DNA from: an uncultured Candidatus Saccharibacteria bacterium
GTDB lineage: Bacteria > Patescibacteriota > Minisyncoccia > Phycocordibacterales > UBA1006
DNA length: 64,000 bases
Assembly: GCA_964464735.1 (NCBI GenBank)
Contig: CAYXKF010000004.1
Coordinates: forward strand, 3,929 to 67,928
Reading direction: 5' to 3'
In this document: positions 3,198 to 60,743 of the stretch, one piece after another
How positions within the stretch are numbered: position 1 is the first letter of the stretch
Layout: each line of letters begins with the position of its first letter
The notes under the pieces: generated by a model
What the model was told of the DNA's origin: nothing
Database searches by the model: none
Seen by the model: the letters and a program-made list of their open reading frames with translations, nothing else
Program-made: the position numbers and the translations under genes

Positions 3198-4616
3198 ATG
3201 AAACCGATTCGCCTAACTAATACGCTCAGCAAACAAAAAGAAGTATTTACACCGATCACCGGCGGCAAAGTTGGCATGTACCATTGCGGGCCGACGGTAT
3301 ACTGGACACAACATATTGGCAACATGCGTGCGGTAACCATTTCTGATATTGTGCGCCGAGTATTCAAATACAACGGGTATGATGTCACCTTAGTACGAAA
3401 TTATACTGATGTTGGCCACTTAACCGGCGACAATATTGGCGATGCCGATACGGGCGAAGACCGTATGACCAAGGCAGTGCGACGCGAGAACCTGACGCCC
3501 GACGAAATCGCAAACAAATATATTGCGGTTTACAACAACGACATCGCAAGTCTAAATGTTATTCCTCCAAGCCACGATCCGCGTGCAACCGATTACATTC
3601 AACAAATGATAGAACTGGTCAGCGAGCTTTTGAAAACAGGCCATGCCTATACAACCGATTACGCGGTATACTTTGATGTTTCAACTTTCCCCGACTACAC
3701 CAAACTGTCTGGGCAAGAATTAAGCAAACTTGAGGCTGGCGAAGGGCATGGAACAGTTACCGACAACAACAAAAAGAATCCAAACGACTTTGCATTATGG
3801 TTTTTTAAAGCCGGATCACACGCAAATGCTTTGCAAACATGGCAGTCCCCTTTTAGCTCGCCACTGGTTCAAAACGGCGAAGGGTTTCCTGGTTGGCACA
3901 TTGAATGTTCGGCAATGAGCAAAGCATTTTTAGGAAACACCTTTGACATTCACATGGGCGGAATCGAACATATTCCGATTCATCACACTAACGAAATTGC
4001 CCAAAGCGAATGTGCAAACCATGCACACTTTGTAAACTATTGGCTGCATAACGAACACTTACTTGTCGACAATAAAAAAATGGCAAAGTCCGAAGGTACT
4101 TCGTATACCATTGCCGACATTACTGGAAAAGGATTTAGCCCAATGGCACTTCGATACTTTTTTTTGCAATCACACTATCGGTCAAAGCAAAACTTTACCT
4201 GGGAAGCACTTGAAGCGTCGCAAACTGCATATAAAAAACTTAAAGCCACTGTGGTCGCTTTGCCGCACAATGGAGCAATCAACGACACCTACAAAGATCG
4301 CTTTTTAGAAGCAATAAACGATGACATCAATATTTCTGCTGGCCTGGCAGTTGTTTGGGAATTATTAAAAGACACCAGTGTTTCGGATGCCGACAAAAAA
4401 GCAACTATTTTGGATATTGATACGGTGCTTGGATTAAACTTAGACGAAGTTGAAACAATTGAAATTCCCGCCGAAGTTCAAAAACTATTAGACGAACGCA
4501 AAGTTGCCCGCGAACAAAAAGATTTCAAAAAATCAGACGAACTACGCGATCAAATCAAAGCGCTTGGATTCGAAGTAAAAGATTCAGCAGACGGCCAAAG
4601 TATTTCAAAACTGTAA
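3198..4616 (+). CDS. cysS: Cysteinyl-tRNA synthetase
   Basis: Class I HIGH (HCGPTVYWTQHIGN) and KMSKS (KMAKSEG) motifs; 472 aa; CysRS-like zinc ligands. Confidence 0.9.
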   Translation: MKPIRLTNTLSKQKEVFTPITGGKVGMYHCGPTVYWTQHIGNMRAVTISDIVRRVFKYNGYDVTLVRNYTDVGHLTGDNIGDADTGEDRMTKAVRRENLTPDEIANKYIAVYNNDIASLNVIPPSHDPRATDYIQQMIELVSELLKTGHAYTTDYAVYFDVSTFPDYTKLSGQELSKLEAGEGHGTVTDNNKKNPNDFALWFFKAGSHANALQTWQSPFSSPLVQNGEGFPGWHIECSAMSKAFLGNTFDIHMGGIEHIPIHHTNEIAQSECANHAHFVNYWLHNEHLLVDNKKMAKSEGTSYTIADITGKGFSPMALRYFFLQSHYRSKQNFTWEALEASQTAYKKLKATVVALPHNGAINDTYKDRFLEAINDDINISAGLAVVWELLKDTSVSDADKKATILDIDTVLGLNLDEVETIEIPAEVQKLLDERKVAREQKDFKKSDELRDQIKALGFEVKDSADGQSISKL

Positions 4617-5197: not shown

Positions 5198-6373
5198 TCA
5201 ATGATGATGGCCCGCGTGCTCGATAAGCCTAGTCTCGCTTTCGATCTGTTCGCTGCTTCCCACTTCGGATTTTTTAATAAGCATCCATGATGCAATAAAG
5301 GTCGTTATTGGTACTGCCAAAATAAGCCCGATTGATCCGACCAAAATACGCACAATTTCGGTTGCAAACATTTCTTGGTTGATAATTGGTACCGAATTGC
5401 CCATCGCACCAGTGTGTGAAGAACTATAAAACTGAAGCAGTAATAAAAGTGGCAGTGACGCACCGACGTACGCGATCGCCAAAGTATCAACCAATGCGCC
5501 AATATGCTCGCGACCCATACGGATTGCGCGCTTATAAATTGAAGTGCGCGGAATATGCGGCGCGATCTTGTGAAGTTCCTCGACTGAAATTGCCTGACTA
5601 ATTGCAATATCGTATAGCACACCCAAAAGTCCGATCATGATTCCGCCAAACAATAATCCGGCAAAATCAATCTTATTGGGAATTGCCGCGCTTAGATAAA
5701 TGGCTTCTTCGTCACCTAATCCGGTTAAGTGCCCAAAGTGCATCGCACCGTACGCAAGCAACCCGGCAAAAACAACTGTCCCCAACATGCCCAAAACCGC
5801 TGCGCTGGTTGTCTTGTTAAATCCATGCGTAATGTATGATCCTACGACAATAATGACGGATGCCACAACAATACTTACCAGCACCGGCGAATAGCCGTGC
5901 AATATTGCCGGCATCAAAACGTATAAAATCAATACGATGCTTCCAGCCAAACTAACCAGTCCGCGAATACCCTGCATGCCGCCAAAAATAACAACCGCAA
6001 GCAAGAACAGTGCCAACAAAACATACAAGGCGCCCATACGATTGTAATCATGGACGGTATAGGTGTTTTGGTATGGCTCTTCAAAGTTTTGAGTATGGAT
6101 AAGATAAAACACGTCGCCCGTTTTAAGCGGCATGTAATCATTATGTACGGTTATTTCTTTTCCTTTTTCTTCCTTGTTAATGATCTTTGCGCTGACGGTT
6201 TGATCAACTAGTTCGACGCCCAAGATATCGTCGTTTGCTATCGGATTATCAACAACCGATATCACTTTTGCACGAAGGGTAGTATTAACTACAGTACCTG
6301 CATACGCCGTTTGATACGAAGAAAAAAAGCCCAACCCAACAACCAGCAATGCTATGGCGCACAGATATTTCAT
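5198..6373 (-). CDS. YibE/F-like polytopic membrane protein
   Basis: N-terminal signal plus an extracytoplasmic domain, followed by multiple Gly/Leu-rich TM helices (LVSLAGSIVLILYVLMP..., LFGGIMIGLLGVLYDIAIS). Confidence 0.45.
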   Translation of the reverse strand: MKYLCAIALLVVGLGFFSSYQTAYAGTVVNTTLRAKVISVVDNPIANDDILGVELVDQTVSAKIINKEEKGKEITVHNDYMPLKTGDVFYLIHTQNFEEPYQNTYTVHDYNRMGALYVLLALFLLAVVIFGGMQGIRGLVSLAGSIVLILYVLMPAILHGYSPVLVSIVVASVIIVVGSYITHGFNKTTSAAVLGMLGTVVFAGLLAYGAMHFGHLTGLGDEEAIYLSAAIPNKIDFAGLLFGGIMIGLLGVLYDIAISQAISVEELHKIAPHIPRTSIYKRAIRMGREHIGALVDTLAIAYVGASLPLLLLLQFYSSSHTGAMGNSVPIINQEMFATEIVRILVGSIGLILAVPITTFIASWMLIKKSEVGSSEQIESETRLIEHAGHHH

Positions 6374-8101: not shown

Positions 8102-8992
8102 TTAATATCCTTCGTTTTTCAACTCTTCGATAGCCTCTTTGGCCCTTTTAGAAAGTTTTTGTGGCATATCGATGGCAATGTATACCAAAAGATCCCCTGT
8201 TCCCCAGTTGCCGCCCGGAACACCTTTTCCTTTTACACGAACCACTTGCCCATGGCTTATGCCGGCAGGAATACTAATTTCAAATTGCTTTCCATCAGGA
8301 GTCGTGAGCATGCGCTTTGCACCAAGCAATGCTTCTGAAAGCTTAAGTGAAATATCAGTTGCCAAATGCTTGCCCTCAAGGCGAAATGTTTTGTCTTCGG
8401 CAACATCAACAACAATAAACAAGTCACCCGACTTGCCGCCTTCGACTTTTTCGCCAAAGCCAGTTACCTTAAGACGCGCCCCGCGTTGCGATCCGGGTGG
8501 AATATCGATCGTCACTTGTTCTTCTTTTTCGCCTTGCGGGATTGTGATCTTCTTTTTTGCTCCATACACCGCTTCGGCAAACGAAAGCTGAATTACTGTC
8601 TCGTAATTTCGTCCTCGACGAACACGGCGTCCGCCATGACCGCCAAATCCAAAACCAAACTGCGAAAAGATATCTTCCATGTCGCCAAAATCAAATTCCA
8701 CACCGCCTTGGCCGTTAAATCCGCCGAATCCCGAAAAGTCGAAACCTTGCCCGTTAAAGCCGCCCGTACCACCGAAGCCTTGCGGACCATCCGAACCAAA
8801 CCGATCATACTGCGCTCGTTTTTGCTTATCGGATAGCGTCTGATATGCTTCGTTTACTTCTTTAAACTTAGCTTCGTCGCCGGTTTTTTTATCCGGATGG
8901 TATTCTTGAGCTTTTTTATAAAACGCTTTCTTAAGCTCGCTCTCGTTAGCGTTTTTATCAACTCCTAAAATTTTGTAATAATCTTTTGACAT
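8102..8992 (-). CDS. dnaJ: DnaJ-family co-chaperone (J-domain plus G/F-rich region plus C-terminal substrate domain; no CxxCxGxG zinc finger, i.e. class II/CbpA-like)
   Basis: DYYKILGV...HPDK J-domain, [17 protein letters not shown] region, 296 aa. Confidence 0.85.
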
Positions 8993-9045
8993 GTAATTAA
9001 ATTAAAGTGAATCCGAGATTAAATCTTCAGAAATATTATCCGTCG

Positions 9046-9136
9046 CAGCTTTTTCCAGGGGCTCGCCGCAGAGGCTTGGCCTCGAGGCAAACGATTTTTT
9101 CCAGCAGGAAAATATTCGGCTCCCTGGAAAAGCTCG
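9046..9136. ncRNA. Structured ~90-nt intergenic element (copy A) between dnaK and dnaJ; a second copy is at 25980-26071
   Basis: Outer stem GCTTTTTCCAGGG/CCCTGGAAAAGC. The shared core is GGCTTGGCCTCGAGGC ... CCAGCAGG ... ATATTCGG. An inner hairpin has an AGCA loop. Confidence 0.5.
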
Positions 9137-9147
9137 ACTAAAACTGC

Positions 9148-11031
9148 TTACTTTTGCTCTGAATTATCTTCGCCCTTCACTTCCTCGGGCTGCACTTCTA
9201 CTTCATCGGTCTTAGGCGCCTCGTTGCCGCCGGCTTTTTGCATAGCCTCGCCAATCTTCATCATCGCTTCTGAAACCGTTTTTGTTTTTGCATCCAAATC
9301 AGCTTCGGTTCCGTTGTCTTTAACAGCCTTAAGCGCCGCAATAGAATCTTCAACTTCTTTTTTCAACTCAGGGGCTACTTTATCGCCATAATCTTTTAAA
9401 GATTTTTCGGCAGTAAAGATTGTCATGTCAGCCAAGTTTCGTTTATCAGCAAGTGCTTTTTTAGCAGCATCCTCGCCAGCATGCATTTCGGCATCTTTTT
9501 TCATCTTTTCAATATCGGCATCAGTCAAACCACTTGAAGCCTCAATGCGGATTGACTGCTCTTTGCCGGTTGTTTTTTCTTTTGCCTTTACTTGCAAAAT
9601 ACCGTTTGCATCAATATCAAAGGTTACTTCTACCTGCGGCATACCGCGCTGTGCTGGTGGAATACCGTCAAGAATAAATCGTCCAAGCGACTTATTGTCG
9701 GCAGCCATCGCACGTTCACCCTGAACAATGTGAATTTCTACGCTGGTTTGATTATCAGCTGCGGTTGAAAACACTTGAGACTTTGAAGTTGGGATCGTCG
9801 TATTTTTTTCGATTAGTTTTGTCGCAACTCCGCCCAATGTTTCAATACCCAAAGAAAGCGGAATAACGTCGAGGAGTAGGACGTCTTTGATGTCTCCCTG
9901 CAATACTCCGGCCTGAACCGCCGCACCAAGCGCAACCACTTCGTCGGGATTGATTGATCGGTTTGGATCTTTGCCAAATACTTTCTTTACTTCTTCAACC
10001 ATCATTGGCATGCGGGTCTGTCCACCGACCATAATGATTTCGTTGATATCAGACGCACTGAATCCTGAATCCTTAAGCACCTGCTTGGTAATAGTGATTG
10101 ATTTTTCAACAAATGGACGGGCAAGATTTTCAAGCTGTGCGCGAGTCATCTTAACCAGCAAGTGTTTTGGGCCTGACGCGTCAGACGTAATAAACGGAAT
10201 ATTGATTTCTGTTTCGGTTGCAGTCGAAAGTTCGATCTTTGCCTTTTCGGCAGCTTCGTCCAACCGCTGCAATGCAAGCGTGTCGGTGGTGACATCAATG
10301 CCTGATTCTTTTTTAAATTCACCCGCAACCCACTTAATGATTTCTTGGTCGATGTCGCGTCCGCCCATGTGACTATCACCGCCAGTCGACTTAACATCAA
10401 TAACCGATTCAGATACTTCAAGCACCGATACGTCAAACGTACCACCACCAAAGTCGTACACGACAACTTTTTCGTCCTTCTTGCGGTCAAAGCCGTACGC
10501 AAGCGCGGCCGCAGTCGGTTCGTTGATGATGCGCTTTACATCCAAGCCAGCAATCGCACCTGCATCCTTGGTTGCTTTTCGCTGAGCGTCGTCAAAGTAC
10601 GCAGGCACCGTAATGACTGCTTCGGTAATTTTTTCGCCAAGCTTCGCTTCGACATCGGCCTTAATTTTTTGCAAGATCATTGCCGAAACTTCTTCGGGCC
10701 GCTGAGCCTGTCCGTTTAGGTTTACCGTAACGCCTCCGTCAGCGCCTTTTGAAATTTCGTAAGGGACGATCTTGGTATCTTTTTGCACCACATCGTCGTT
10801 AAAGTTGTGGCCCATGTAGCGCTTGATACCGTAAATAGTGTTTTTAGGGTTTGTTACCGCCTGGCGCTTTGCAAGCAAACCAACCAATCGTTCACCGTTT
10901 TTTGACACGGCAACAATCGAAGGAGTCGTGCGATTTCCTTCGCTGTTTTCAATAATCTTTGGCGCACCGCCTTCGATGATTGCGACTGCGCTGTTTGTAG
11001 TTCCTAAATCGATTCCAATAATTTTGCTCAT
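9148..11031 (-). CDS. dnaK: Molecular chaperone DnaK (Hsp70)
   Basis: [18 protein letters not shown] and the rest of the Hsp70 signature; 627 aa. Confidence 0.95.
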
Positions 11032-12090: not shown

Positions 12091-12702
12091 ATGGTTAAAA
12101 AACAACAACCAATCCCTATTAGTTCGGGTAAAAAAACAAGCATCCAAAGCGGTATTTTAAAGGTATTGGGTGCCCAAAAGTACCTTGAACCCGAAGAGGC
12201 TAAAACATTGATTTTAGAGCATTTTAAGCGCTCTGACGGGGCAAAGGCCGCACTGCCCCAGTTTGCCTATAGCGTCCAACGGTCGCTTGATCGGCTTATC
12301 GAGGCTGGCGAAATTGTTACCGTAAAGTCAGGAAGTGTCGGCGCCAAAAAGCACCTTATTACCCTATCTGACAGCGGGCGCCAAAAACTACAGCATCAGT
12401 CGTTTGATCTATCTACCAGCATTGTGCCGACCATGTGGGACGGTAAATGGCGTATTGTCCTTTTAGACTTTCCTGAATACCAAAAGCAAGACCGCGACAC
12501 GATGCGTTACCTATTAAAGAAGGCACGTTTTGTATGCCTTAAAAAATCGGTTTGGGTGTCACCATTTCCATACGAAGAATATCTGCAGTCACTAAAACAA
12601 AACCTTCCATCATCTGATGCGGTTATTTGTATCGTTGCCGAAACCATTGACCCCGAAATCGAAGTAAAATTGCTTGAACATTTTCGGTTGGTACGGCAAT
12701 AA
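12091..12702 (+). CDS. PaaX-like transcriptional regulator (N-terminal winged helix plus C-terminal Cas2/VapD-fold domain)
   Basis: C-terminal WDGKWRIVLLDFPE...RDTMRYLLKKARFVCLKKSVWVSP resembles the PaaX C-domain/Cas2-fold signature. Confidence 0.4.
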   Translation: MVKKQQPIPISSGKKTSIQSGILKVLGAQKYLEPEEAKTLILEHFKRSDGAKAALPQFAYSVQRSLDRLIEAGEIVTVKSGSVGAKKHLITLSDSGRQKLQHQSFDLSTSIVPTMWDGKWRIVLLDFPEYQKQDRDTMRYLLKKARFVCLKKSVWVSPFPYEEYLQSLKQNLPSSDAVICIVAETIDPEIEVKLLEHFRLVRQ

Positions 12703-25888: not shown

Positions 25889-25979
25889 GGTGTCACTTTA
25901 TTATATCATAAATAAAATGACAGTTTAAAGTTTTTAAGTATCAAATAAGAGAAAAACAAGGTCTGAAAAAGAACCTCCT

Positions 25980-26071
25980 CAGACCTTTCCAAAAAGCTCA
26001 CCTCAGGAGCTTGGCTTCGAGGCGGACGAAATCCGCCAGCAGGCGGATATTCGGGTTTTTTGGAAGGTCTG
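25980..26071. ncRNA. Structured ~90-nt intergenic element (copy B), homologous to 9046-9136
   Basis: Outer stem CAGACCTTTCCAAAAA/TTTTTGGAAGGTCTG. The inner hairpin ATCCGCC-AGCA-GGCGGAT shares the AGCA loop with copy A but has a different stem sequence. Confidence 0.5.
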
Positions 26072-26117
26072 ATAAAAAATGTCTGTTGGATTTTGAGTTG
26101 TTTACGTAAAAGAAAAA

Positions 26118-26145
26118 CCCGATCCTATGACCGGGCTTTTCTTCG
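26118..26145 (-). terminator. Intrinsic terminator downstream of the sigma-r4/HARE-HTH gene
   Basis: Minus-strand CCCGGUCAUAGGAUCGGGUUUUUCUUUU. Confidence 0.55.
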
Positions 26146-33232: not shown

Positions 33233-34951
33233 TTATAAAAACTCCTGCTGATAACATTCTTTGCAATAAATCACCGGCGCGCGGTCTTTTTCGTAATGGG
33301 TCCTAAACTGCTTGTTGCAATTATCGCAGGTGCGGTCTTTTAGTCGCATATTATTTACCCATATGCGAAGCTTTGCATCAATACGGCAAAACGGACACTG
33401 GCGCGGAATACAAATGTTTAACTTTCGAAGCAATTGAAGTTCAAGCGGAATAATTTTATATCCTTTTTTGCAATCACTGCATTCGATCGTTTCAGATAAA
33501 ATTGAATCGTCAATATGTGAAATATGATCAAGCACATCAGCAGCTTTTTTGGTAATTGAATATTCACGCTTGCTGTCATCATGTTTCCATCCGCCCATTG
33601 CCAAAACCTGGGCATCAGTCTTTGGATAAAACAAATTGGCAAACGTATGCTGATACGGAAACGGCGCGATCTGCGGCGGAAAAAACTCGCCGTACTTGTA
33701 TACATGCCCATTAGTATCACTGTACGGCATATCATCGATATGCTTGATAATTTTTTCGCGCAAAGCAGTGTATTCATCTTTTGTATACTGTTTGTTAAAA
33801 ATAACGTAATCGCCCTTTCGCGCCGAAACGCATCCAAACTGGTTGCTTCCAGTTATCGCAAGCTTGCAATACGCACTGTCGGTCAGATTGATACCGCTTT
33901 CTTGAACGAACTTCACGTTTGAAGCAAATTCGCCCGTTACCCCGCTTTCATACGCGTTTTCTAGCCCGTATCCAAAGTCGCAAATGTCATAGCAGTTCTT
34001 TTGCGGGGCACGGTACAAGCTAATACAATACTTGCAGTCTTCACAATACGCGCAGTCGTAGCATTCGTGACAGTTTTTTGATTCAAAAATATAACTGCCA
34101 GTGCAATTAACCGACATAGTATCCCACGCCGGACGCGGCACGACGCTTTTCCAAAAATCTTGTGCTTCAGTTTGCGCTTTTTGGTATCCGACATGCGAAC
34201 CTAAGTCATATTGTGCGCGTTTTTCAAGATACGCCTCTTTGGTCAGCTGTTCGTTTTTAAAGCAATAGCTTTTATTTTTTAAGTTCGCACACATAAAACA
34301 ATTGGTGCAGTTTTCACAATCGCGCAAAAAGGCACTGTCGATGCAAAAGCGATTATTGCCGCGGCTTCCTACCACGCGCGAGCTTTTGTACAGGTTCGAG
34401 CAGTCATAACACGCGTCACAGCTCATCACCATCGAACAATCAGAAACATCACGGCACTGCGTCACGTTAAACCCATATTCGCATTCTTGGTTGAAATCGG
34501 TATTGAATGTTAGATAACAATCTTTCAAATCGGCGGCGTGATTATTGTATGGCGAACCAGGAGTCGTCGTCGCATTAATTGAAAGGCCTAACAGTGGTGC
34601 TTGATGCATCAGTTCATCAAACTGTTCGAAAAATGGACGACTAAAATCGTAATCGCGGCCATAATCGCGCCAATCCCAATTGTCAGACCACCAGCATGTC
34701 GGGCAATACACTTTGTACTGCGAGCGTTTATCTTCGCCATTTGGCGGATACATCGAAATGAAGCGCTTACTGCACAAATCGCAGTCACGGTAAAACAAAT
34801 TTACCAAGTTGTACCAAGCGTAGCGGCGCATCCGTCGGCAGTCAGGGCAAAAAGTCGGCGGCGGAACCTGCATTTTTTCGTAAAATCCAAAGTCGTCATC
34901 CTCGATGACAAATGACTTTTTGCAGTTTTGGCAATTTCGCGTTTCGGTCAT
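33233..34951 (-). CDS. Cys-rich zinc-ribbon paralog G (array position 7); start MTETRNCQNCK, with its ATG overlapping the TGA of paralog F (ATGA)
   Basis: Family consensus at both termini (…FYEKMQVPPPTFCPDCRRMRR… / …VIYCKECYQQEFL); internal NKQYTKDEY module. Confidence 0.8.
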   Translation of the reverse strand: MTETRNCQNCKKSFVIEDDDFGFYEKMQVPPPTFCPDCRRMRRYAWYNLVNLFYRDCDLCSKRFISMYPPNGEDKRSQYKVYCPTCWWSDNWDWRDYGRDYDFSRPFFEQFDELMHQAPLLGLSINATTTPGSPYNNHAADLKDCYLTFNTDFNQECEYGFNVTQCRDVSDCSMVMSCDACYDCSNLYKSSRVVGSRGNNRFCIDSAFLRDCENCTNCFMCANLKNKSYCFKNEQLTKEAYLEKRAQYDLGSHVGYQKAQTEAQDFWKSVVPRPAWDTMSVNCTGSYIFESKNCHECYDCAYCEDCKYCISLYRAPQKNCYDICDFGYGLENAYESGVTGEFASNVKFVQESGINLTDSAYCKLAITGSNQFGCVSARKGDYVIFNKQYTKDEYTALREKIIKHIDDMPYSDTNGHVYKYGEFFPPQIAPFPYQHTFANLFYPKTDAQVLAMGGWKHDDSKREYSITKKAADVLDHISHIDDSILSETIECSDCKKGYKIIPLELQLLRKLNICIPRQCPFCRIDAKLRIWVNNMRLKDRTCDNCNKQFRTHYEKDRAPVIYCKECYQQEFL

Positions 34952-36648
34952 AAGTATTCTTGCTGATAACACTGCTTGCAGTAAATAACCGGCGCGCGGT
35001 CTTTGGTGTAAAACGTCTTAAATTCTTTGCCGCATTTATCACACGCACGATCAAGCTGCTGCATGTTTGAAACCCAAATATCGACTTTCTCCCAGATACG
35101 ACAAAACGGGCACGACCGAGGAAGCGGCAACGTATGCTGGCGCAAAAATTGCAACTCTTGCCCAATGACACGAAAACCGCGATTACAGGTACTGCAACCG
35201 ATCACCTCTTGCAAAATAGTGTCGGATGCATCTTTAATGTTGTCAGGCAAATATTTAGCTGCAACCGTAACAGCGTATTCGCGATTTTCGGGTTCGTACC
35301 ATTTTAGGCCCTTTACCTGCACCTGTTCTTTATTAAGTGGAAAAAAACGCGCGGCAAAGCTGTCGTTGTAAAAGTTCGGTGAGAATTCAGGTGGAAAGAA
35401 CTCGCCATATTTATAGACATGCCCTTCTGTACTAATATATGGATTAGCGTCCATGTCTTTCTTAATTTGTTCACGCAGCTTTTCGAATTCTTCTTTACTA
35501 TATTGTTTATTTAAAATCGAATAGTTGTTCTTTTTTAGGCTTACGCACCCAAAATGATGTTCGGCGGTAATTGAAAGCTTTGAATACTGTACATCCAACA
35601 ATCCATGACCTGATTCGTGGGTAAAATAAATATCCTGCGCGCCTTCACCGACCGTTATCGCTTCGTAAATACGATTCGAATTATTTCCCCAGTCGACATA
35701 ATCGTAGCTGTCTTTTACCGGGCCAAACTTGATAAGCATCAAATATTTAGAGTCTTCGGCATACGAAACTGCATAGCATTCTTTGCTATTTTTGCAGTAC
35801 GAAAAATAGCTCCCACTGCTTTTATCGTCTGAAAACAGGTCATAAACCGGCCGCGGTGAATATTTTTTAAAATGATCATAGGCTTTTTTCTTGTATTCTT
35901 GGTATTGGCTGTACGAACCCAAATCTATTTCGGACATCTTTTGCTTGTATTCTTCTTTTGAAAGCTGTTCGTTAAAAAATACATTCGAGGCATGCTGAAG
36001 GTTGATCGAGCCAAAACAATTATTGCAGTCATTGCAGTCGTAACAAAACGTCGTATCGATCGATTTGATCATGCCATGAGAACCGACGACATGAAAGTTA
36101 TCCGACGCCGATACGCAGTCGAAACATTTTTCAGAACCGCTTATAAACGAGCAGTTGAGTACATTTTTATTCTGCGCGCCGTAGAATCCGTATACATGCT
36201 CTTCGCAAAAGTCCGAATAAAACAGCAAATAACAATTTTTCGAATGCCCCACATGATTACAAAATTGCGAGAAATTGCTGGTCGGCTGATCAATCGAAAG
36301 GCCCAACAACGGCGCTTTATGCAAAAGTTCATTCCATTGCTCGAGGAACGGACGCATAGGATCATAATCCATCGCCAAGTCCTTCGCATCCCACTTATCA
36401 GACCACCAGCAGCGATCGCAATACACGACATACGGCGCATCTGGGTGATACATCGAGAACCGCTCTTCGTGACACAGATCACACTTTCGCTTGAAAAGCT
36501 GGATTCCCTTCATCCAAATAAGGCGGCGTTGCAAGCGGCACTGCGGGCAAAATGTCGGCGGAGGAACATTGATTTTTGCGTAAAAATCAAAATCCTCGTC
36601 TTCGATGACGAATGCATTTTTACAATTTTGGCAATTTCGAGTTTCCAT
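34948..36648 (-). CDS. Cys-rich zinc-ribbon paralog F (array position 6)
   Basis: METRNCQNCKNAFVIEDEDFDFYAKINVPPPTFCPQCRLQRR...; C-terminal VIYCKQCYQQEYL; a 2-nt gap follows the upstream paralog's stop. Confidence 0.8.
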   Translation of the reverse strand: METRNCQNCKNAFVIEDEDFDFYAKINVPPPTFCPQCRLQRRLIWMKGIQLFKRKCDLCHEERFSMYHPDAPYVVYCDRCWWSDKWDAKDLAMDYDPMRPFLEQWNELLHKAPLLGLSIDQPTSNFSQFCNHVGHSKNCYLLFYSDFCEEHVYGFYGAQNKNVLNCSFISGSEKCFDCVSASDNFHVVGSHGMIKSIDTTFCYDCNDCNNCFGSINLQHASNVFFNEQLSKEEYKQKMSEIDLGSYSQYQEYKKKAYDHFKKYSPRPVYDLFSDDKSSGSYFSYCKNSKECYAVSYAEDSKYLMLIKFGPVKDSYDYVDWGNNSNRIYEAITVGEGAQDIYFTHESGHGLLDVQYSKLSITAEHHFGCVSLKKNNYSILNKQYSKEEFEKLREQIKKDMDANPYISTEGHVYKYGEFFPPEFSPNFYNDSFAARFFPLNKEQVQVKGLKWYEPENREYAVTVAAKYLPDNIKDASDTILQEVIGCSTCNRGFRVIGQELQFLRQHTLPLPRSCPFCRIWEKVDIWVSNMQQLDRACDKCGKEFKTFYTKDRAPVIYCKQCYQQEYL

Positions 36649-36650
36649 AC

Positions 36651-38399
36651 TTATGCAACTTCTGTCTGATAACACTTCTCGCAGTATATTACTTCTGCGC
36701 GATCTGGCGCATAGGTTGTCTGAAATTCATTTTGGCAATTGCCCATATGACCGTGATTCTCAGCTTTGCACATGCACTGACGATGATAGAGTGCCGGAGG
36801 ATTTCTCCAACCCACACGATCAATATGCCGGCAGTTAAAACATAGACGCGGAAGCGGCAGCTGCGACTGACGGTAAAAATCAAGTTCTTGCTGGGTAATT
36901 TTAAAGGCGCTAGCACAATCAACATTGCAGCCATTTTTATGTCCGTCTAGTTCGTCGTGTTGGCACTGAATCACTTCGTTTATAATCGAATCAGGAACAT
37001 CTTTTATTGAATCAGGTAACTCACTTGCCTTTTTGGTGATCGGATATTTTCGCTCTTCAGGTGTTCGCCAGCGATACCCTTGCTTAGTCGCTTCTTCTTC
37101 GGTAATAGGAAAATATTCAAACGCCTGTGATTGGCTGTATCCGTAAGTAGACATATCAAAAGGGAAAAATTCGCCGAACCGGTAAACTCGCCCTTCTGCA
37201 TCTATATACGGCATATCATCCATATGTTTTTTTATTTTTGGAAGCAAATCAAAGTATTCCTCTTTGGTGTATTGCTTATTTAAAATACAATACGTTTTAT
37301 TGCGCACGCCAATGCACCCAAAAACATTACTGACGCTTTTGCAATTGATTGAATAATATCCGTCACTTATATTTGCGCACTCAAATGTAGCGATTGTTTT
37401 ATGCGCGCCGTTTCCGCAGCAAATCGTCTCGTACGAAAGTTCGGTGCCTTCGCTTGAGGTGATATCCATCCCGTCATTGTTCGGAGGATAGATAACACTT
37501 TGGCAGTATTTCATATTTCGGGCATTGCCTACAAAAAAGCACCGATCAATTTCGCTTGCGTTATTTAAATAGTCTCCAATGCAGCCAGGAGCTTGCACGC
37601 TGTGCTGATATTTAACGGGTGATTTTTCCCAAAAGGTTTCGGCTTTTTTTCGCGCTTCAACAATACCCGACCACGAATCAAGGTTCATTTCGGCAAGCTT
37701 TGCTTTATACGTTTCTTTATCACATGGCTGATTGAAAATATGATAGCTTTTATTTTTCAACCCGCTGCATCCAAAACAGCTGGTACACCCGACACAATCT
37801 TGGGACATCCACACCTCGACGCACGAAACGCAGTTGCGCGAAAAATACGTTTTGAAAGATTGCGTGGTGTTTATACAGTAATAACAGAGTTCAGAATCTT
37901 TTACATTTAATCCGTCAAAACATTTTTTGCTATATAAAAGCGTAACACTGTATGCGCTGTCTTCGTCATAACCCGAATCAAAACACAGATAACAATTTTT
38001 TGAATACCCACATACTGCATAGCTGCAATTCACCATTTCCATAGACCACATAATTCCCCATGGCACGACAGCATAGAAATCGCGAACTTGGTCGAAAAAT
38101 GGCCGTGAAAAATCGTAATCACGCCCGTAATCCATGGCATCCCACTTATCACTGTTCCAGTATTCATTACTATACACCGGCATTGGATTTTCAGGCGGCA
38201 TCAATGTAAATATTTTTTCACCAGTTGCAGCGCACGTGCGAGCATACAAATGGCGCATGTCGCGAAAACTCATACGACGGATCGCACGGCATTTCCAGCA
38301 AAATGTCGGCGGGGGTACCTTTATTTTTTCGTAGAATAAAAAGTCATCAGGCTCGATCGTAAATTGCAGTTTACAGTTTTGGCACGCTCGGGTTTCCAT
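36651..38399 (-). CDS. Cys-rich zinc-ribbon paralog E (array position 5)
   Basis: METRACQNCKLQFTIEPDDFLFYEKIKVPPPTFCWKCRAIRR...; C-terminal VIYCEKCYQTEVA. Confidence 0.8.
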   Translation of the reverse strand: METRACQNCKLQFTIEPDDFLFYEKIKVPPPTFCWKCRAIRRMSFRDMRHLYARTCAATGEKIFTLMPPENPMPVYSNEYWNSDKWDAMDYGRDYDFSRPFFDQVRDFYAVVPWGIMWSMEMVNCSYAVCGYSKNCYLCFDSGYDEDSAYSVTLLYSKKCFDGLNVKDSELCYYCINTTQSFKTYFSRNCVSCVEVWMSQDCVGCTSCFGCSGLKNKSYHIFNQPCDKETYKAKLAEMNLDSWSGIVEARKKAETFWEKSPVKYQHSVQAPGCIGDYLNNASEIDRCFFVGNARNMKYCQSVIYPPNNDGMDITSSEGTELSYETICCGNGAHKTIATFECANISDGYYSINCKSVSNVFGCIGVRNKTYCILNKQYTKEEYFDLLPKIKKHMDDMPYIDAEGRVYRFGEFFPFDMSTYGYSQSQAFEYFPITEEEATKQGYRWRTPEERKYPITKKASELPDSIKDVPDSIINEVIQCQHDELDGHKNGCNVDCASAFKITQQELDFYRQSQLPLPRLCFNCRHIDRVGWRNPPALYHRQCMCKAENHGHMGNCQNEFQTTYAPDRAEVIYCEKCYQTEVA

Positions 38400-38401
38400 A
38401 T

Positions 38402-40078
38402 CTATACCATTTCTTGTTGATAACATTTTTCACAATACACTTTTTCAAGCCGATCTGGCGCATACGCCGTATCAAATTCATTTGAGCAATTTCCAACATG
38501 TGCGTGATTTGTTTTATTACACATACATTTGCGATGATAAAGCAAGCGAGGCAGCCGCACTGCCATTCGTTCGTCGTGCCGACAAAAGAAACACTTTGTA
38601 GGCAATGCAAGCCTGAAGCGCTCATAAAAAGAAATTTCATGATTAATAAACCGGTAATTGCGCTTACATGCTTGGCAGGCAAAAATCTTGTCTTTTAAAA
38701 ATTCCCAATTGTATATTTGTGCAGGCAGTAATGAATCAAGCAAGCAATTTTCTTGCCCTTTAGTATCAGGAATATTATCCTCCCATCGATAGCCGAACGC
38801 CAGGGCCTGATCTTTGGTAAGCGGATAGTATTCACCAACGGTCGACTCGTTATATGCATAGGGGGAAATAGCAATTGGAAAGTATTCTCCCCATTCCCCA
38901 TTCTGCTTCATATGTTCGATTATTTTTGGAACCATTATTTCATATTCTTCTTTTGTATATTGCTTGTTTAAAATACAATAATCTTTTTTACGAAGCCCTA
39001 CACATCCAAAAAGGTTGTTCGAATTGAAACAAGCCTCTGAATATGTTGTATCTGTGCAGTCAATAGCTAAGTGGCAGAACTTCAGTCCATATGGTTGCGA
39101 GAAAAGGCACTCGTATGAGTTTTCAATATCAAGTGAAAAGCCGCAATCATAGCTGTTTATGAATTTGCGCACAGTAAATCCAAATTTGCTGTCTTCTCCT
39201 GATTTAACATCAAATGCCCAGTGGACATTTTTTGCGTGATAAACATGATTTCCGCTTGCAGCTACGTTGTGCGAACCAAACATGTGAGGCGTAGGAACTT
39301 CTTGCATCAACGCATCACGCTGACTCAAGATATGCTGAAGCACCTTCGGATCAGATAAAGGATACTCACTTAAGAATTTTTGGTACTCCTCCTTAGTAAC
39401 TTGCTTATTGAAAATATGATAACTTTTATTTCGAAGTCCAACACATCCGATGCAATTAACACATCCACGGCAATCAAACAAAGCGATCGAATCAGTGCAC
39501 GCCTCACATTCGCGGCAATACAGCAGTCGAGTAGACTCTAATACATCAATGCATTGGTAACAGTATTCAGACTTAAACAAATACAGGCAGTCGACCGATT
39601 CGCGACAATTCCATACTGAATGACTATAGTCACAATCTTCATTATCAACGCATCCAAATACGAAGTAACAGCGAGCGCTCCTGTTGCATAAATTGGAAAA
39701 TCCACAGTCGGTACTGTTGTTCACCATCAATGAGAAGCGGGGTACTTGGTCGTTTAATTCTTTATACTGTTCAAAAAAAGGGCGTGCGAAATCAAAATCG
39801 CGACCGTAACTCGTAGCATCCCAATCGTCTGCATACCATTCTTCGGTACTCCACACTGGAAAGGGCTGTCGTTCATGATACATCGAAATAATGGCCTTTC
39901 CCGATTTAGACGATGGCCGGCGATATAATGTCCTGAAATTTCTAACAAACAACCGACGAATCTGTCGGCATTTAGGACAATGGGTAGGAGCCGGCACTTG
40001 CATCTTTTCGTAAAACAAAAAGTCGTCCGGTGTTATTTGAAAATTTTGATTGCATTTTTTGCAGACCTTGATTTCCAT
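38402..40078 (-). CDS. Cys-rich zinc-ribbon paralog D (array position 4)
   Basis: MEIKVCKKCNQNFQITPDDFLFYEKMQVPAPTHCPKCRQIRR...; C-terminal KVYCEKCYQQEMV. Confidence 0.8.
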   Translation of the reverse strand: MEIKVCKKCNQNFQITPDDFLFYEKMQVPAPTHCPKCRQIRRLFVRNFRTLYRRPSSKSGKAIISMYHERQPFPVWSTEEWYADDWDATSYGRDFDFARPFFEQYKELNDQVPRFSLMVNNSTDCGFSNLCNRSARCYFVFGCVDNEDCDYSHSVWNCRESVDCLYLFKSEYCYQCIDVLESTRLLYCRECEACTDSIALFDCRGCVNCIGCVGLRNKSYHIFNKQVTKEEYQKFLSEYPLSDPKVLQHILSQRDALMQEVPTPHMFGSHNVAASGNHVYHAKNVHWAFDVKSGEDSKFGFTVRKFINSYDCGFSLDIENSYECLFSQPYGLKFCHLAIDCTDTTYSEACFNSNNLFGCVGLRKKDYCILNKQYTKEEYEIMVPKIIEHMKQNGEWGEYFPIAISPYAYNESTVGEYYPLTKDQALAFGYRWEDNIPDTKGQENCLLDSLLPAQIYNWEFLKDKIFACQACKRNYRFINHEISFYERFRLALPTKCFFCRHDERMAVRLPRLLYHRKCMCNKTNHAHVGNCSNEFDTAYAPDRLEKVYCEKCYQQEMV

Positions 40079-40080
40079 AA

Positions 40081-41811
40081 TTACATGACTTCTTTTTGAT
40101 AGCACTGTTCACAATAGACTTTTTCGAGCCGATCAGGTGCATAGGATGTTTCAAATTGATGTTGGCATACACCCTGATGATCATGATTTGGCAGATCGCA
40201 CATACATTTTCGGATCCACAGATGCATTGAGTTTCTCCACCCTACTCGCTCAAAATGCCGGCAGTTCGGACACAAAGTCGGCAAAGGCAGCTTCTTTTGT
40301 TTCAAAAATTGTAACTCGTCGGGGGTAATTTTAAACGCTGTGGTGCATTGATACCCGCATTCACCCTTATGCGCACATTCAATCACCTGACCAAAAATGT
40401 CTTCACTAACGGCATTAATATCATTCGGTATCTGATTGTTTAGCATTGTAATAGCATATGTTCGTTTTTCGCGCGGTTTCCACGGATACCCTTTCTCGCT
40501 TGCAATTGCTTCGGTAATCGGGAAATAATCCTGTACGACACTTTCGTTATACGTAAACGGGCAAAATTCATACGGAAAATATTCCCCGTATGCATACACG
40601 CGCCCTTTTGCATCCACATACGGCATATCGTTCATATGCTTGATCAGTTTCGGAACCAGTTCTTCGTATTCTTCTTTAGTATACTGCTTGTTTAAAATGC
40701 AATACTGCGCATTTTTTATGTTCGAGCACCCAAAACAATCCGAACAGTTGCGGCACAGCGCCGAATATTTCATGTTTTTTGAAGTCAGGCAGATAAAGCT
40801 TGCCAACGCGCCGTAACTTTGAATACTACATGCCACGCCTTCGTACTCAAGCTCACCGGTTAAAATACCATAACAATCGTAACAGTCTTTGCAGCTTAAT
40901 ATGCGGTTTCCGTTTGAAACATTTTCGCTGTTTTGCACATCAAACGAATTATGCACCATGCGCGAATTGTTGATAAAATCTCCGGTCGCATCCTGCGAGT
41001 TTACAATATTCGAATATTTCACCACCGAATTTTTGCACAATTCTTCAAATCGTTTTTTTGCCTTTTCAAGACCTTCTCGCGTATGAAGCTGCAGTTCATC
41101 AAACCGTTTTTTATATTCTTCTTTTGTCAGCTGCTGATTTTCAAAAATATACGACTGCTTTCGGATATTGGTACTTAAACAGCAGTTTTGGCAGTTTGCA
41201 CTGTTGGCAACAAAGTACGAATCAATGCAGCTTTGCGAACGAATCGCATAGTGACAGTTAAAATTACCCAGACAATCCACATTCCACGAACAATTATCCA
41301 ATTGCTGGGCACCAAGGCAGTCAAACGAATTTTTAGACTTATCAATATTTTCAGAATACTGAATATCTTCGCAGCCGATGACCGAAAACGCCAGGTATAC
41401 ATTTTTATTATCAAGCGTGTAGTTGCTGTAATCGCTGTTTACCAATGTTCCGCCGCGATACTGATAATTGCGCGGAGTCTTTTTAAACAAATCATTGAAT
41501 TGCTGCAAAAAAGGAACATTCCAATCAATGTCCATCGCATATGTCTTTGCATCCCATCCGTCGCCCATCCAGCATTCGTGGCAATATACTGGACAGAGAT
41601 CAGCGTCAGAATACATGCCGATGCTCATTTTTCCACATAGTCCGCACGGGCGCCGATACAACGACCGTACATTACGCCAAAGCATACGGCGAATACGCCT
41701 ACATTCAGGGCAGAATGTTGGATGCGGAACCTTTATTTTTTCAAGAAAAGAAACCTCATCATGAGTGACGATAAATGATTCTTTGCAATTTTGGCATTTT
41801 TTGGTTTCCAT
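40081..41811 (-). CDS. Cys-rich zinc-ribbon paralog C (array position 3)
   Basis: METKKCQNCKESFIVTHDEVSFLEKIKVPHPTFCPECRRIRR...; C-terminal KVYCEQCYQKEVM. Confidence 0.8.
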   Translation of the reverse strand: METKKCQNCKESFIVTHDEVSFLEKIKVPHPTFCPECRRIRRMLWRNVRSLYRRPCGLCGKMSIGMYSDADLCPVYCHECWMGDGWDAKTYAMDIDWNVPFLQQFNDLFKKTPRNYQYRGGTLVNSDYSNYTLDNKNVYLAFSVIGCEDIQYSENIDKSKNSFDCLGAQQLDNCSWNVDCLGNFNCHYAIRSQSCIDSYFVANSANCQNCCLSTNIRKQSYIFENQQLTKEEYKKRFDELQLHTREGLEKAKKRFEELCKNSVVKYSNIVNSQDATGDFINNSRMVHNSFDVQNSENVSNGNRILSCKDCYDCYGILTGELEYEGVACSIQSYGALASFICLTSKNMKYSALCRNCSDCFGCSNIKNAQYCILNKQYTKEEYEELVPKLIKHMNDMPYVDAKGRVYAYGEYFPYEFCPFTYNESVVQDYFPITEAIASEKGYPWKPREKRTYAITMLNNQIPNDINAVSEDIFGQVIECAHKGECGYQCTTAFKITPDELQFLKQKKLPLPTLCPNCRHFERVGWRNSMHLWIRKCMCDLPNHDHQGVCQHQFETSYAPDRLEKVYCEQCYQKEVM

Positions 41812-41813
41812 GG

Positions 41814-45247: not shown

Positions 45248-45275
45248 AGCAGTAGTGCCAGTATACTCTTTTGCT

Positions 45276-52460: not shown

Positions 52461-52548
52461 TGGCGGAAGCGGAGAGATTCGAACTCTCGATACCTTGCGG
52501 TATGCCGGTTTTCGAAACCGGTGCGTTAGACCACTCTGCCACGCTTCC
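52461..52548 (-). tRNA. tRNA-Ser (anticodon CGA), CCA encoded
   Basis: Cloverleaf read on the minus strand: GGAAGCG acceptor, ACCGG-TTTCGAAA-ACCGG anticodon arm, long variable arm, GTTCGAATC T-loop, ...GCCA end. Confidence 0.85.
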
Positions 52549-60651: not shown

Positions 60652-60658
60652 ATATATG

Positions 60659-60743
60659 CGGAGGCGGCGAGATTCGAACTCGCGAAGGCTTTCACCTTGC
60701 CACCTTTCCAAGGTGGTGCACTAGACCGCTATGCGACGCCTCC
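60659..60743 (-). tRNA. tRNA-Ser (anticodon GGA), no encoded CCA
   Basis: GGAGGCG acceptor, CCACC-TTGGAAA-GGTGG anticodon arm, long variable arm, GTTCGAATC T-loop. Confidence 0.85.

Follow-up and report, generated by a model that had tools for sequence, protein, structure and literature searches.

What does a strongly folded segment do in the spacer between dnaK and dnaJ of an uncultured member of the Patescibacteriota? The segment lies in a 64,000-nucleotide stretch of DNA (assembly GCA_964464735.1, contig CAYXKF010000004.1, positions 3,929 to 67,928 of the forward strand), the whole of which we call the window, and it has a second copy in the same window. An earlier note on this DNA had taken the pair for a functional structured RNA rather than a mobile sequence, and had suggested a thermosensor or another cis-regulator of dnaJ. 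We find instead that the two copies belong to a family that is found, so far, only in DNA of the Candidate Phyla Radiation (CPR). Our favoured reading, to which we give about an even chance, is that of a new, uncatalogued family of dispersed, insertion-prone structured elements of Paceibacteria/Kaiserbacteria that behaves like a miniature insertion element; it builds on homology, structure, strand, distribution, gain and loss, and flanking repeats, all of which are directly observed.

Two copies of one three-way junction

The two segments, named copy A (9042–9140) and copy B (25977–26075), share 80% identity in a gap-free alignment of 99 columns. The 15-mer GCTTGGCYTCGAGGC that they share occurs exactly twice in the window, against a chance expectation for exact matches of ~2e-4 by our own arithmetic. 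When each copy is folded alone, the same three-way junction is obtained, composed of a closing stem, P1, and two hairpins, P2 and P3. The predicted fold has an energy of −48.2 kcal/mol for copy A (z = −5.3) and of −51.6 kcal/mol for copy B (z = −7.2), and in neither case was any of 200 shuffles as stable. P1 has 13 bp in the register common to both copies and extends to ~20 bp; its 5′ strand carries in both a single bulged pyrimidine, 7 bp below the junction. P2 rises from a GCC/GGC base through a 3×2 internal loop, in which GCA or UCA faces GA, to a 5-bp stem with a UUG loop, and P3 is composed of a 3–4-bp lower stem, an invariant bulged A, and a 7-bp upper stem that ends in CC/GG and is capped by an AGCA loop. 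The parts of the two copies are as follows, with scores from two covariance models, R1, built from copies A and B, and R2, the model of the family core.

9042–9140, + strand: copy A, whole three-way junction, in the dnaK-dnaJ spacer and antisense to dnaK and dnaJ; R1 113.8 bits, R2 63.5 bits
9042–9062, + strand: copy A, 5′ strand of P1 (GTCG-C-AGCTTTT-T-CCAGGGGC), of locus-specific sequence with one bulged T, as given by the fold
9065–9088, + strand: copy A, P2 (GCC / GCA-GA internal loop / GAGGC-TTG-GCCTC / GGC)
9092–9118, + strand: copy A, P3 (CGA..TTTTCC-AGCA-GGAAAA-TAT-TCG), with two family-wide invariants, the A at 9114 and the CC-AGCA-GG tip
9119–9138, + strand: copy A, 3′ strand of P1, ending 9 nt short of the dnaK stop codon (9148–9150)
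25977–26075, + strand: copy B, whole element, between a sigma70-r4/HARE-HTH gene and a DUF8128 gene and antisense to both; R1 114.1 bits
25979–25997, + strand: copy B, 5′ strand of P1 (TCAGACCTT-T-CCAAAAAGC)
26001–26022, + strand: copy B, P2 (CC-TCA-GGAGC-TTG-GCTTC-GA-GG), with a G.U pair valid on the + strand only
26027–26053, + strand: copy B, P3 (CGAA-ATCCGCC-AGCA-GGCGGAT-A-TTCG)
26054–26072, + strand: copy B, 3′ strand of P1 (GGTTTTTTGGAAGGTCTGA)

Every difference between the copies that falls in a stem is compensatory, and the loops, bulges, and junction strands are identical. Double compensatory changes are seen at 8 of the 13 P1 pairs, at three pairs of P3, and at one of P2, which shows in addition one change from G-C to G.U. 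A search of the window with R1, filters off, returned copies A and B as the sole matches. The earlier note had described two homologous segments with common core strings, an outer stem, and an AGCA-loop hairpin, with the pairing held by compensatory changes; the core strings are indeed exact, and our one addition to its stems is the bulged base in the 5′ strand of P1. The homology and the shared fold of the two segments are confirmed, far beyond chance.

Family members in other CPR genomes and covariation of the stems

Pattern scans and synteny yielded 13 further members, all in CPR DNA of the Paceibacteria/Kaiserbacteria type, which brings the family to 15. Among the matches listed from species-representative genomes, two are real relatives, L146 in a Paceibacterota metagenome-assembled genome (MAG) and L207 in a Kaiserbacteria MAG; the pattern used there was too GC-rich and too loose, and the other listed matches are chance matches in high-GC genomes. 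A tighter pattern, applied to metagenome contigs, gave ten real loci (L240, L242=L250, L243=L247, L244, L245, L246, L249, and L251) and three chance matches. Two copies are present in L251, and the core model R2 detected a second, divergent copy in L249. Viral contigs gave only chance matches in a scan with the 15-mer, the sole one that also had CAGCAGG being GC-rich coding DNA, and either none or chance matches only with the tighter patterns; INPHARED phages and PLSDB plasmids had no blastn match to the element.

The core of the element measures ~65 nt, and the whole 90–100 nt when the closing stem is included. In the relatives, P2 and P3 are nearly letter-identical and read GCC-GGA-xxxGC-UUG-GCxxx-GA-GGC-GG-GGUCGCGCA-xxxxxCC-AGCA-GGxxxxx-A-UGUGUGACC, with a lower P3 stem that is longer than in the window copies. 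The family P2 has the GCC/GGC base, a 3×2 internal loop of GNA opposite GA, and a loop of the UUG type. A closing P1 of locus-specific sequence is found in the window copies, in L253 (the dnaK-dnaJ site of a relative, see below), in L244, and in L207. Most other members have, instead of P1, a 5′ hairpin preceded by GGGUGAGA, and in L240 a predicted 5′ hairpin likewise replaces P1. Copies A and B, L253, L244, and L207 have mutually unrelated P1 sequences, and all 13 P1 pairs vary.

In an alignment of 14 core sequences, 95.4% of the cells are paired, compared with 81.2% in shuffles, and eleven pairs show double changes. The covariation score of this core is 0.363 versus 0.127 for shuffled alignments, a value that 0 of 500 shuffles reached, and controls in which the structure was slid gave at most 0.065. 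Among the six members that bear P1, double changes are present in 24 of the 31 pairs and all 13 P1 pairs covary, in an alignment that was fitted to the model, which favours structure. Covariation among the members is strong, and the compensatory pairing described in the earlier note is supported. The columns GCTTGGC, CGAGGC, and CCAGCAGG were demanded by the search patterns in 11 of the 14 core sequences; because the loop strings were fixed in this way, the constancy of the loops cannot count as independent evidence in members obtained by pattern. L253 was found by synteny and is hence independent: it retains CCAGCAGG, the bulged A, AUAUUC, and GCUC, and its P2 loop differs (GUCG).

Two multi-copy loci show particular arrangements. 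The divergent unit of L249 (441–520, minus strand) stands in tandem with the canonical one, after a tRNA gene; its first hairpin carries the AGCA loop, its second retains the GGUCGCGGA...A-UCUGUGACC lower stem with a GACG loop, and each of the two units is followed by a strong terminator-like hairpin. The two copies of L251 (1975–2235 and 3660–3920) are contained in a ~230-nt repeat that brackets an open reading frame (ORF) of 461 amino acids (aa) without a Pfam match, and similar ~70-nt segments flank each copy.

The structured strand

Thirteen of 14 members have a predicted fold that is more stable in the + orientation than in the reverse complement, by 2.9–15.5 kcal/mol; in copy A the two strands tie, and the difference amounts to −5.1 kcal/mol for copy B and −6.3 kcal/mol for L253. 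Among the helix cells of the core, G.U outnumbers A.C by 22 to 2 (5 to 2 in the P1-bearing set), and all eleven members that are not of the window type share one G.U in the lower stem of P3. This excess of G.U over A.C and the better folding in the + orientation identify the + strand of the window as the structured one, antisense to dnaK and dnaJ. Since nearly all genes of the window are encoded on the minus strand, both copies are antisense to the local transcription, dnaK and dnaJ included. As to the window at large, the minus strand encodes ~44 of 47 ORFs of at least 180 aa, and the + strand shows a negative GC skew in 15 of 16 bins of 4 kb; the window is probably situated within one replichore, with genes co-oriented with replication.

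Presence and absence of the element at orthologous sites

Copy A is flanked by the two chaperone genes:

8102–8992, − strand: dnaJ-type gene (J domain and DnaJ_C, no zinc finger)
9148–11031, − strand: dnaK (Hsp70)

It occupies most of the 155-nt spacer between them, 9 nt from the dnaK stop codon and 50 nt from the dnaJ ATG. The gene content of the window includes grpE-dnaK-dnaJ, uvrA, and the sigma70-r4/HARE-HTH protein, and the homologues of its DnaJ and DUF8128 proteins come from sources named Paceibacteria, Parcubacteria, or Patescibacteria. The closest relative with data, GCA_964482675.1 (L253/L254/L255; DnaJ 83% identical), carries the element at the same dnaK-dnaJ place and in the same orientation. 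L253 differs from copy A by many compensatory changes: P1 is different, the P2 base GCC/GGC is replaced by UGC/GCA, and the P3 base CGA/UCG by GGAA/UUCC. Other relatives have other arrangements. The dnaK-dnaJ spacer of L259/L260 (DnaJ 50–55% identical) is 20 nt long and has no element, three small genes separate dnaK from dnaJ in L258, an antisense gene lies between them in L261/L262, and in L257 (DnaJ 80% identical) a different gene is located upstream of dnaJ and overlaps it. R2 found no match on 55 kb of related Paceibacteria dnaK-dnaJ regions. These data are best explained by copy A being an old insertion, inherited in at least two species, with its pairing held by compensatory change. The tie to dnaJ proposed in the earlier note is contradicted by the element-free dnaK-dnaJ spacers of these relatives and by the unrelated contexts of the other members, described below.

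Three features mark the surroundings of copy B:

25900–25929, − strand: strong promoter-like site (TTTAAA-18-TGaTATAAT, extended −10) of the DUF8128 gene, between copy B and that gene
25958–25971, + strand: upstream direct repeat AAGGTCTGAAAAAG, which matches the outer 3′ strand of copy B P1 and its flank (AAGGTCTGATAAAA, 26064–26077)
26111–26141, − strand: intrinsic terminator of the sigma-like gene (CCCGGTC-ATAG-GATCGGG and a T run), upstream of copy B, with weak Rfam terminator-type matches

The repeat at 25958–25971 forms, together with the 5′ strand of copy B P1, a terminator-like hairpin on the minus strand (25987–25958). In GCA_964482675.1 (L263/L264; DUF8128 88% identical) the same two genes are 116 nt apart, as compared with 268 nt in the window, and the L263 spacer consists of the terminator of the upstream gene, 32 nt, and then the same TGATATAAT promoter. 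Copy B and ~90 nt of its flanks are absent from this site, and R2 gave no match on 32 kb there. This one pair of genomes, the window and GCA_964482675.1, has copy A in common and copy B not; the best explanation is that copy B is lineage-specific. The DUF8128 promoter itself (L263 counterpart ~5960–6000) ends only ~11 nt before the ATG, with no Shine-Dalgarno sequence between, and is conserved in the relative. This layout suggests mRNAs with very short leaders, or leaderless ones, in the lineage, and dnaJ may have a similar short-leader layout.

Genomic contexts and flanking duplications

The neighbours of the other members are varied. The element follows rplL on the same strand, ahead of the terminator, in L207; it follows tRNA genes on the same strand in L244 and, as two units in tandem, in L249; and it lies antisense in the 16S-tRNA spacer of L240. 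Its further neighbours are cca, RNR, GH130, and Wzy-like genes, and its orientation to them varies. Neither dnaJ nor any other gene is a constant companion of the element. L240 (1–1535) also shows a 906-nt insertion in the 16S rRNA gene near model position 1064–1073, typical of the introns and insertions that CPR rRNA genes are reported to carry.

Flanking repeats were assessed by local alignment of the 220 nt on either side of each core against shuffled flanks. Five of 14 members (L242, L244, both L251 copies, and copy B) lie above the 95th percentile of the shuffled flanks, versus 0.7 expected (binomial P ~4e-4, own arithmetic). The repeat of L242 is 32 nt long, with 30 of 32 positions identical, and scores 54, where shuffles reach at most 25. 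A tRNA lies 150 nt upstream in L244, and its T-arm/acceptor 3′ end is repeated exactly, over 13 nt, by the 3′ strand of P1, CGATCCCTGCCGC. For copy B, a 14-nt AAGGTCTGA(A/T)AAAA is present upstream (25958–25971) and again as the outer 3′ strand of P1; its score of 22 compares with 21 for the 95th percentile and 24 for the maximum of the shuffles. The repeats that flank the L251 copies are ~70 nt long, and in L146 an exact 10-nt repeat takes in the last codons of the convergent cca gene. These duplications at several members, together with the absence of copy B from the orthologous site of the close relative, run counter to the earlier preference for a functional RNA rather than a mobile sequence. 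Next to the L242 element (3880–3975, minus strand), a ~15-bp hairpin (GACCCACGAAGGAGG ... CCCTCCTTCGTAGGTC) encloses ~45 nt and has the downstream copy of the repeat as its 5′ arm; it may represent the original target hairpin or a further structured element.

The clearest view of an insertion site comes from rplL. The gene end in L207 reads ...GGC GGG AAA GTT ACG TTG AAG TAA CTTT, then the 65-nt core, then GTT ACA CTC AAG TAA ACTTTTC, and finally the terminator, so that each of the two flanks, GTTACGTTGAAGTAA and GTTACACTCAAGTAA, encodes VTLK-stop. The L372 group of Kaiserbacteria (L7/L12 94% identical) has no element, and ...GTT ACA CTC AAG TAA is followed there by the terminator: this is an empty site, the last 15 nt of which are identical to the downstream repeat of L207. 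The duplicated rplL end of L207 contains a natural inverted repeat, GTTAC...GTAAC, and the pairing of this repeat as P1 suggests how a locus-specific closing stem can arise from the target.

At the same place, directly after the rplL stop codon, L382 (2361–2451; also L383–L390; L7/L12 95% identical) carries a 67-nt insert composed of GGGUGA, a hairpin, and then GCC-stem-AGCA-stem-GGC. Each of its flanks, GGC GGA AAA GTT ACT TTA AAG TAA and GGT GGT AAA GTC ACA CTT AAG TAG, codes for GGKVTLK-stop; 7 of the 24 nt are different between them, and all seven differences are synonymous. Since this is not the decay of a non-functional duplicate, the repeats derive from two functional rplL alleles; judged from the sequences, they fit an insert that would have arrived with the gene end of a donor and displaced that of the recipient. 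R2 gives the L382 insert no score, the likeness lying in shared modules seen by eye, and the insert could be a reduced relative of the element.

Comparison with known RNA families and mobile elements

No family of Rfam was matched by the element at gathering or lax thresholds. With Rfam 15, the whole window gave at the gathering threshold only two tRNA-Ser genes (52461–52548 and 60658–60743). At E-values up to 10, the region of copy A gave zero matches and that of copy B only terminator-type noise on the neighbouring terminator, outside the element. Twelve related loci gave only rRNA and tRNA at the gathering threshold, and lax E-values in L251, L249, and L246 revealed nothing on the element. 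Full-text literature searches turned up no description of such an element in Patescibacteria.

Several known classes of RNA were considered and rejected. Copy A resembles the ROSE and FourU thermometers in its location upstream of a heat-shock gene. However, it lies 50 nt from the dnaJ ATG, contains neither ribosome-binding site (RBS) nor start codon, and has its structure on the antisense strand, and copy B is upstream of a promoter. A marginal helix that melts at 30–42 °C is incompatible with the predicted −47 to −52 kcal/mol and a closing stem of 13–20 bp; by the standard of the known ROSE and FourU thermometers, a fold of ~−47 kcal/mol is far too stable to melt at 42 °C. The three-way-junction riboswitches of the purine class share with the element the P1-P2-P3 plan, a variable P1, and conserved internal nucleotides. 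A riboswitch is rejected as the neighbours are unrelated (dnaK/dnaJ, DUF8128, rplL, tRNAs, 16S, cca, RNR, GH130) and the orientation is variable. Unlike riboswitches and thermometers, the element is on the wrong strand, has no consistent downstream gene, lies outside the 5′ untranslated region in the case of copy B, and does not sequester an RBS or AUG. No intrinsic terminator is called at copy A on either strand, and the sole call at copy B is another hairpin that overlaps the 5′ strand of P1. The hammerhead core strings CUGANGA / GAAA are absent from both strands, with no Rfam ribozyme match at E up to 10. ARAGORN and Rfam give only the two tRNA-Ser genes of the window, which dismisses a tRNA- or tmRNA-like gene. 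A small protein-coding gene starting at the GTG of GGGTGAG is rejected too: the reading frames through the core differ between L146 and L242 on one side and L251 on the other because the upstream hairpin lengths differ by non-multiples of three, and the substitutions in the stems are compensatory. Resemblances to the SRP Alu domain, 5S rRNA, RNase P, tmRNA, and scoutRNA have no Rfam support and are incompatible with several divergent copies per genome.

Two tertiary motifs were likewise discarded. A loop-loop (kissing) interaction of UUGG in P2 with CCAG in P3 is not compensated in P3 when P2 has GUCG in L253 or CUCGG in L251 copy 1, and a kink-turn in the P2 internal loop would break covarying P2 pairs. 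Beyond copy A the eye picks out what could be a decayed duplicate of the dnaK 3′ end (GATAAT...TCWGAR), but the similarity is not significant.

The nearest counterparts in behaviour are interspersed repeats: REP/BIME, ERIC/IRU, the pneumococcal BOX and RUP, the Neisseria Correia element, the mycobacterial MIRU, and the Rickettsia RPE. Like them, the element is short, non-coding, multi-copy, mostly intergenic, strongly folded, and found in either orientation; it is present or absent at the same site in relatives and is sometimes kept, with its pairing, at orthologous sites. Unlike them, it folds as a three-way junction or a series of hairpins in which loop and bulge nucleotides do not vary, and its outer stem varies between copies and so provides no terminal inverted repeats. 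Its hosts are CPR bacteria, its target duplications are long and variable (10–32 nt or more, compared with 2–9 bp), and no RAYT or insertion sequence (IS) transposase partner is seen with it. A REP or REPIN is rejected, the element being a branched structure of 65–100 nt without a GTAG head. It is multi-copy (two copies each in the window, L251, and L249) and has empty sites (L263 for copy B, L372 for L207), as a miniature inverted-repeat transposable element (MITE) would; that identity is rejected for want of terminal inverted repeats conserved among copies and of a short target duplication of fixed length. Single-strand transposition on the lagging-strand template in the manner of IS200/IS605 is disfavoured, on two copies only, given that the element is structured on the G-poor + strand and nearly all genes lie on the other.

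Integron attC sites and the CTX-phage attP(+) site used by XerCD resemble the element in that the structure of the stem outlasts its sequence, folding is strand-specific, and bases are extrahelical; they too can be small non-coding inserts adjoining genes. The element, in contrast, has no R″/L″-L′/R′ boxes, GTTRRRY core, nearby cassette array, integrase, or dif-like site. The centre of attC is variable and that of the element conserved, and the ends of its stem, GTCGCAG.../...CTCGAC in copy A and TCAGACC.../...GGTCTGA in copy B, likewise led us to reject an attC site, as did the lack of an array. Islands at tRNA and tmRNA 3′ ends and the orphan ends of Rhs/CDI loci offer a further likeness, as rplL ends are duplicated in L207 and possibly in L382 with synonymous differences only, and L244 repeats a tRNA 3′ end as do islands that target 3′ ends. 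Unlike such islands, the insert measures ~65–85 nt, encodes nothing, and comes with no integrase, and the second repeat of L244 is not followed by the rest of the tRNA.

Weighing an insertion element against other explanations

If the family behaves like a miniature insertion element, P2 and P3 would form the recognition structure, as single-stranded DNA or RNA, for a trans-acting factor that inserts or maintains the element, and spread between related genomes could proceed by homologous recombination after DNA uptake. Members adjoin the 3′ ends of genes, tRNAs, and terminator hairpins, and the target duplications of 10–32 nt would rebuild the interrupted end of rplL. The position between dnaK and dnaJ, and any effect on either gene, would be incidental. 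Several facts weigh against this view. Conserved termini and terminal inverted repeats are absent, P1 being wholly different between copies, unlike in a classical MITE; no transposase, integrase, or reverse transcriptase is seen near any copy; the repeats vary in length from 10 to ~70 nt (10, 13, 14, 15–19, 32, and ~70); and neither copy A nor its orthologue has a significant flanking repeat by local alignment against shuffled flanks. The retention of structure at an orthologous site, with DnaJ 83% identical, would be expected of a function selected in the host more than of selfish DNA, and the sample is small (15 members) and was gathered by patterns that fix loop sequences. A more specific proposal, which we consider rather unlikely as it stands, is a new non-autonomous mobile element whose conserved folded single strand (P2 and P3) inserts by hairpins or gene 3′ ends, duplicates 10–30 nt, restores the gene end, and takes its closing stem from the target. 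The stem would be assembled through the GTTAC..GTAAC of the duplicated rplL end in L207 and through the copy of the tRNA 3′ end in L244. Its 3′ strand could then supply built-in homology to the target during DNA uptake and recombination, or else some recombinase or ribozyme activity could be the mover.

The main rival is an independently transcribed family of trans-acting small RNAs, made from the strand of the element, whose P2 and P3 would bind a protein or RNA and whose copies would be duplicated and lost as are those of other small-RNA genes. We consider it about half as likely as an insertion element, with which it is not mutually exclusive. The strand-specific G.U pairs and covariation, the conserved apical and internal loops, and the structure retained at the orthologous dnaK-dnaJ site all favour such an RNA, as do the terminator-like hairpins that follow the element on its own strand in L207, at both L249 copies, and imperfectly at copy B, and the two tandem L249 units after a tRNA. 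Yet the members share no upstream promoter motif, with only weak sigma-70-like matches, copy A is followed directly by antisense dnaK with no terminator in between, both copies in the window run against nearly every gene in 64 kb, and the target duplications and the rebuilt rplL end are left unexplained. A new class of small self-cleaving ribozyme, or some other RNA with a catalytic or processing role, appears quite improbable. Hammerhead and twister ribozymes are typically dispersed, multi-copy, and independent of neighbouring genes, and the element, too, is dispersed in either orientation without gene association and presents a three-way junction with variable stems and invariant loop nucleotides. 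Its conserved nucleotides are located, however, in the hairpin tips and one internal loop rather than in the junction core, conservation between the window type and the other type does not extend to the junction strands, which are very short, and neither an Rfam ribozyme match (E up to 10) nor the hammerhead core (CUGANGA ... GAAA, both strands) is found.

A cis-acting leader of minus-strand mRNA, a thermosensor or riboswitch-like device that controls dnaJ and, for copy B, the DUF8128 gene, is largely refuted already, and we would be much surprised to see it return. Both window copies do lie upstream of minus-strand genes, copy A is equally stable on either strand, P1 of copy B overlaps a minus-strand terminator-like hairpin and T run (25987–25958) in a layout like that of a riboswitch platform, and the dnaK-dnaJ position is kept in one relative. 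But the strand signal of the family is the opposite one, a conserved promoter stands downstream of copy B, the start region of dnaJ is untouched at 50 nt, and the fold is too stable for a thermometer, all of which speaks against the cis-regulator proposed in the earlier note. The element is, moreover, absent from other Paceibacteria dnaK-dnaJ spacers and from upstream of DUF8128 in the close relative, and its homologues follow rplL and tRNAs or lie antisense in an rRNA spacer. No more probable is a DNA palindrome free of structural selection, in which complementarity would be kept by template-switch (quasi-palindrome) correction. Template switching in quasi-palindrome mutagenesis can mimic compensatory change, and the long, near-perfect P1 stems of locus-specific sequence would suit it, but conserved G.U pairs and a 22 to 2 asymmetry of G.U over A.C are not its products, and the bulges, internal loop, and loop sequences are invariant across distant genomes.

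Other features of the window and its relatives

A gene for a PaaX_M protein (Cas2-like central domain) is encoded at 12091–12702 (+ strand), divergent from grpE-dnaK-dnaJ. It also adjoins grpE in L253, L259, L261, and a 509-kb JGI contig; its presence beside grpE in several relatives makes the protein a candidate regulator of the Paceibacteria chaperone operon. Further along the window, on the minus strand (33233–47009), nine paralogous genes of ~565–590 aa form a head-to-tail array with a period of ~1.7 kb, and a tenth paralogue is found at 35–1813. They are ~60–85% identical in patches and belong to no Pfam family, save for a sub-threshold match of the N terminus to a treble-clef zinc finger. 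L256, from a close relative of the window genome, has a free-standing 23S_rRNA_IVP (four-helix-bundle) gene between corA and cysS (2530–2883).

Significance for CPR bacteria

The genomes of CPR bacteria, or Patescibacteria, are ~1 Mb in size, densely packed, and almost unexplored for non-coding elements. For their annotation, the element described here is not to be labelled a heat-shock leader. A structured family without an Rfam entry, gained and lost and yet long kept folded, would be among the first non-coding elements described for the CPR. If insertion with target duplication is confirmed, it would indicate an unrecognised way of moving DNA in organisms that are thought to depend heavily on DNA uptake, and the element would serve as a marker for recombination between uncultivated lineages.

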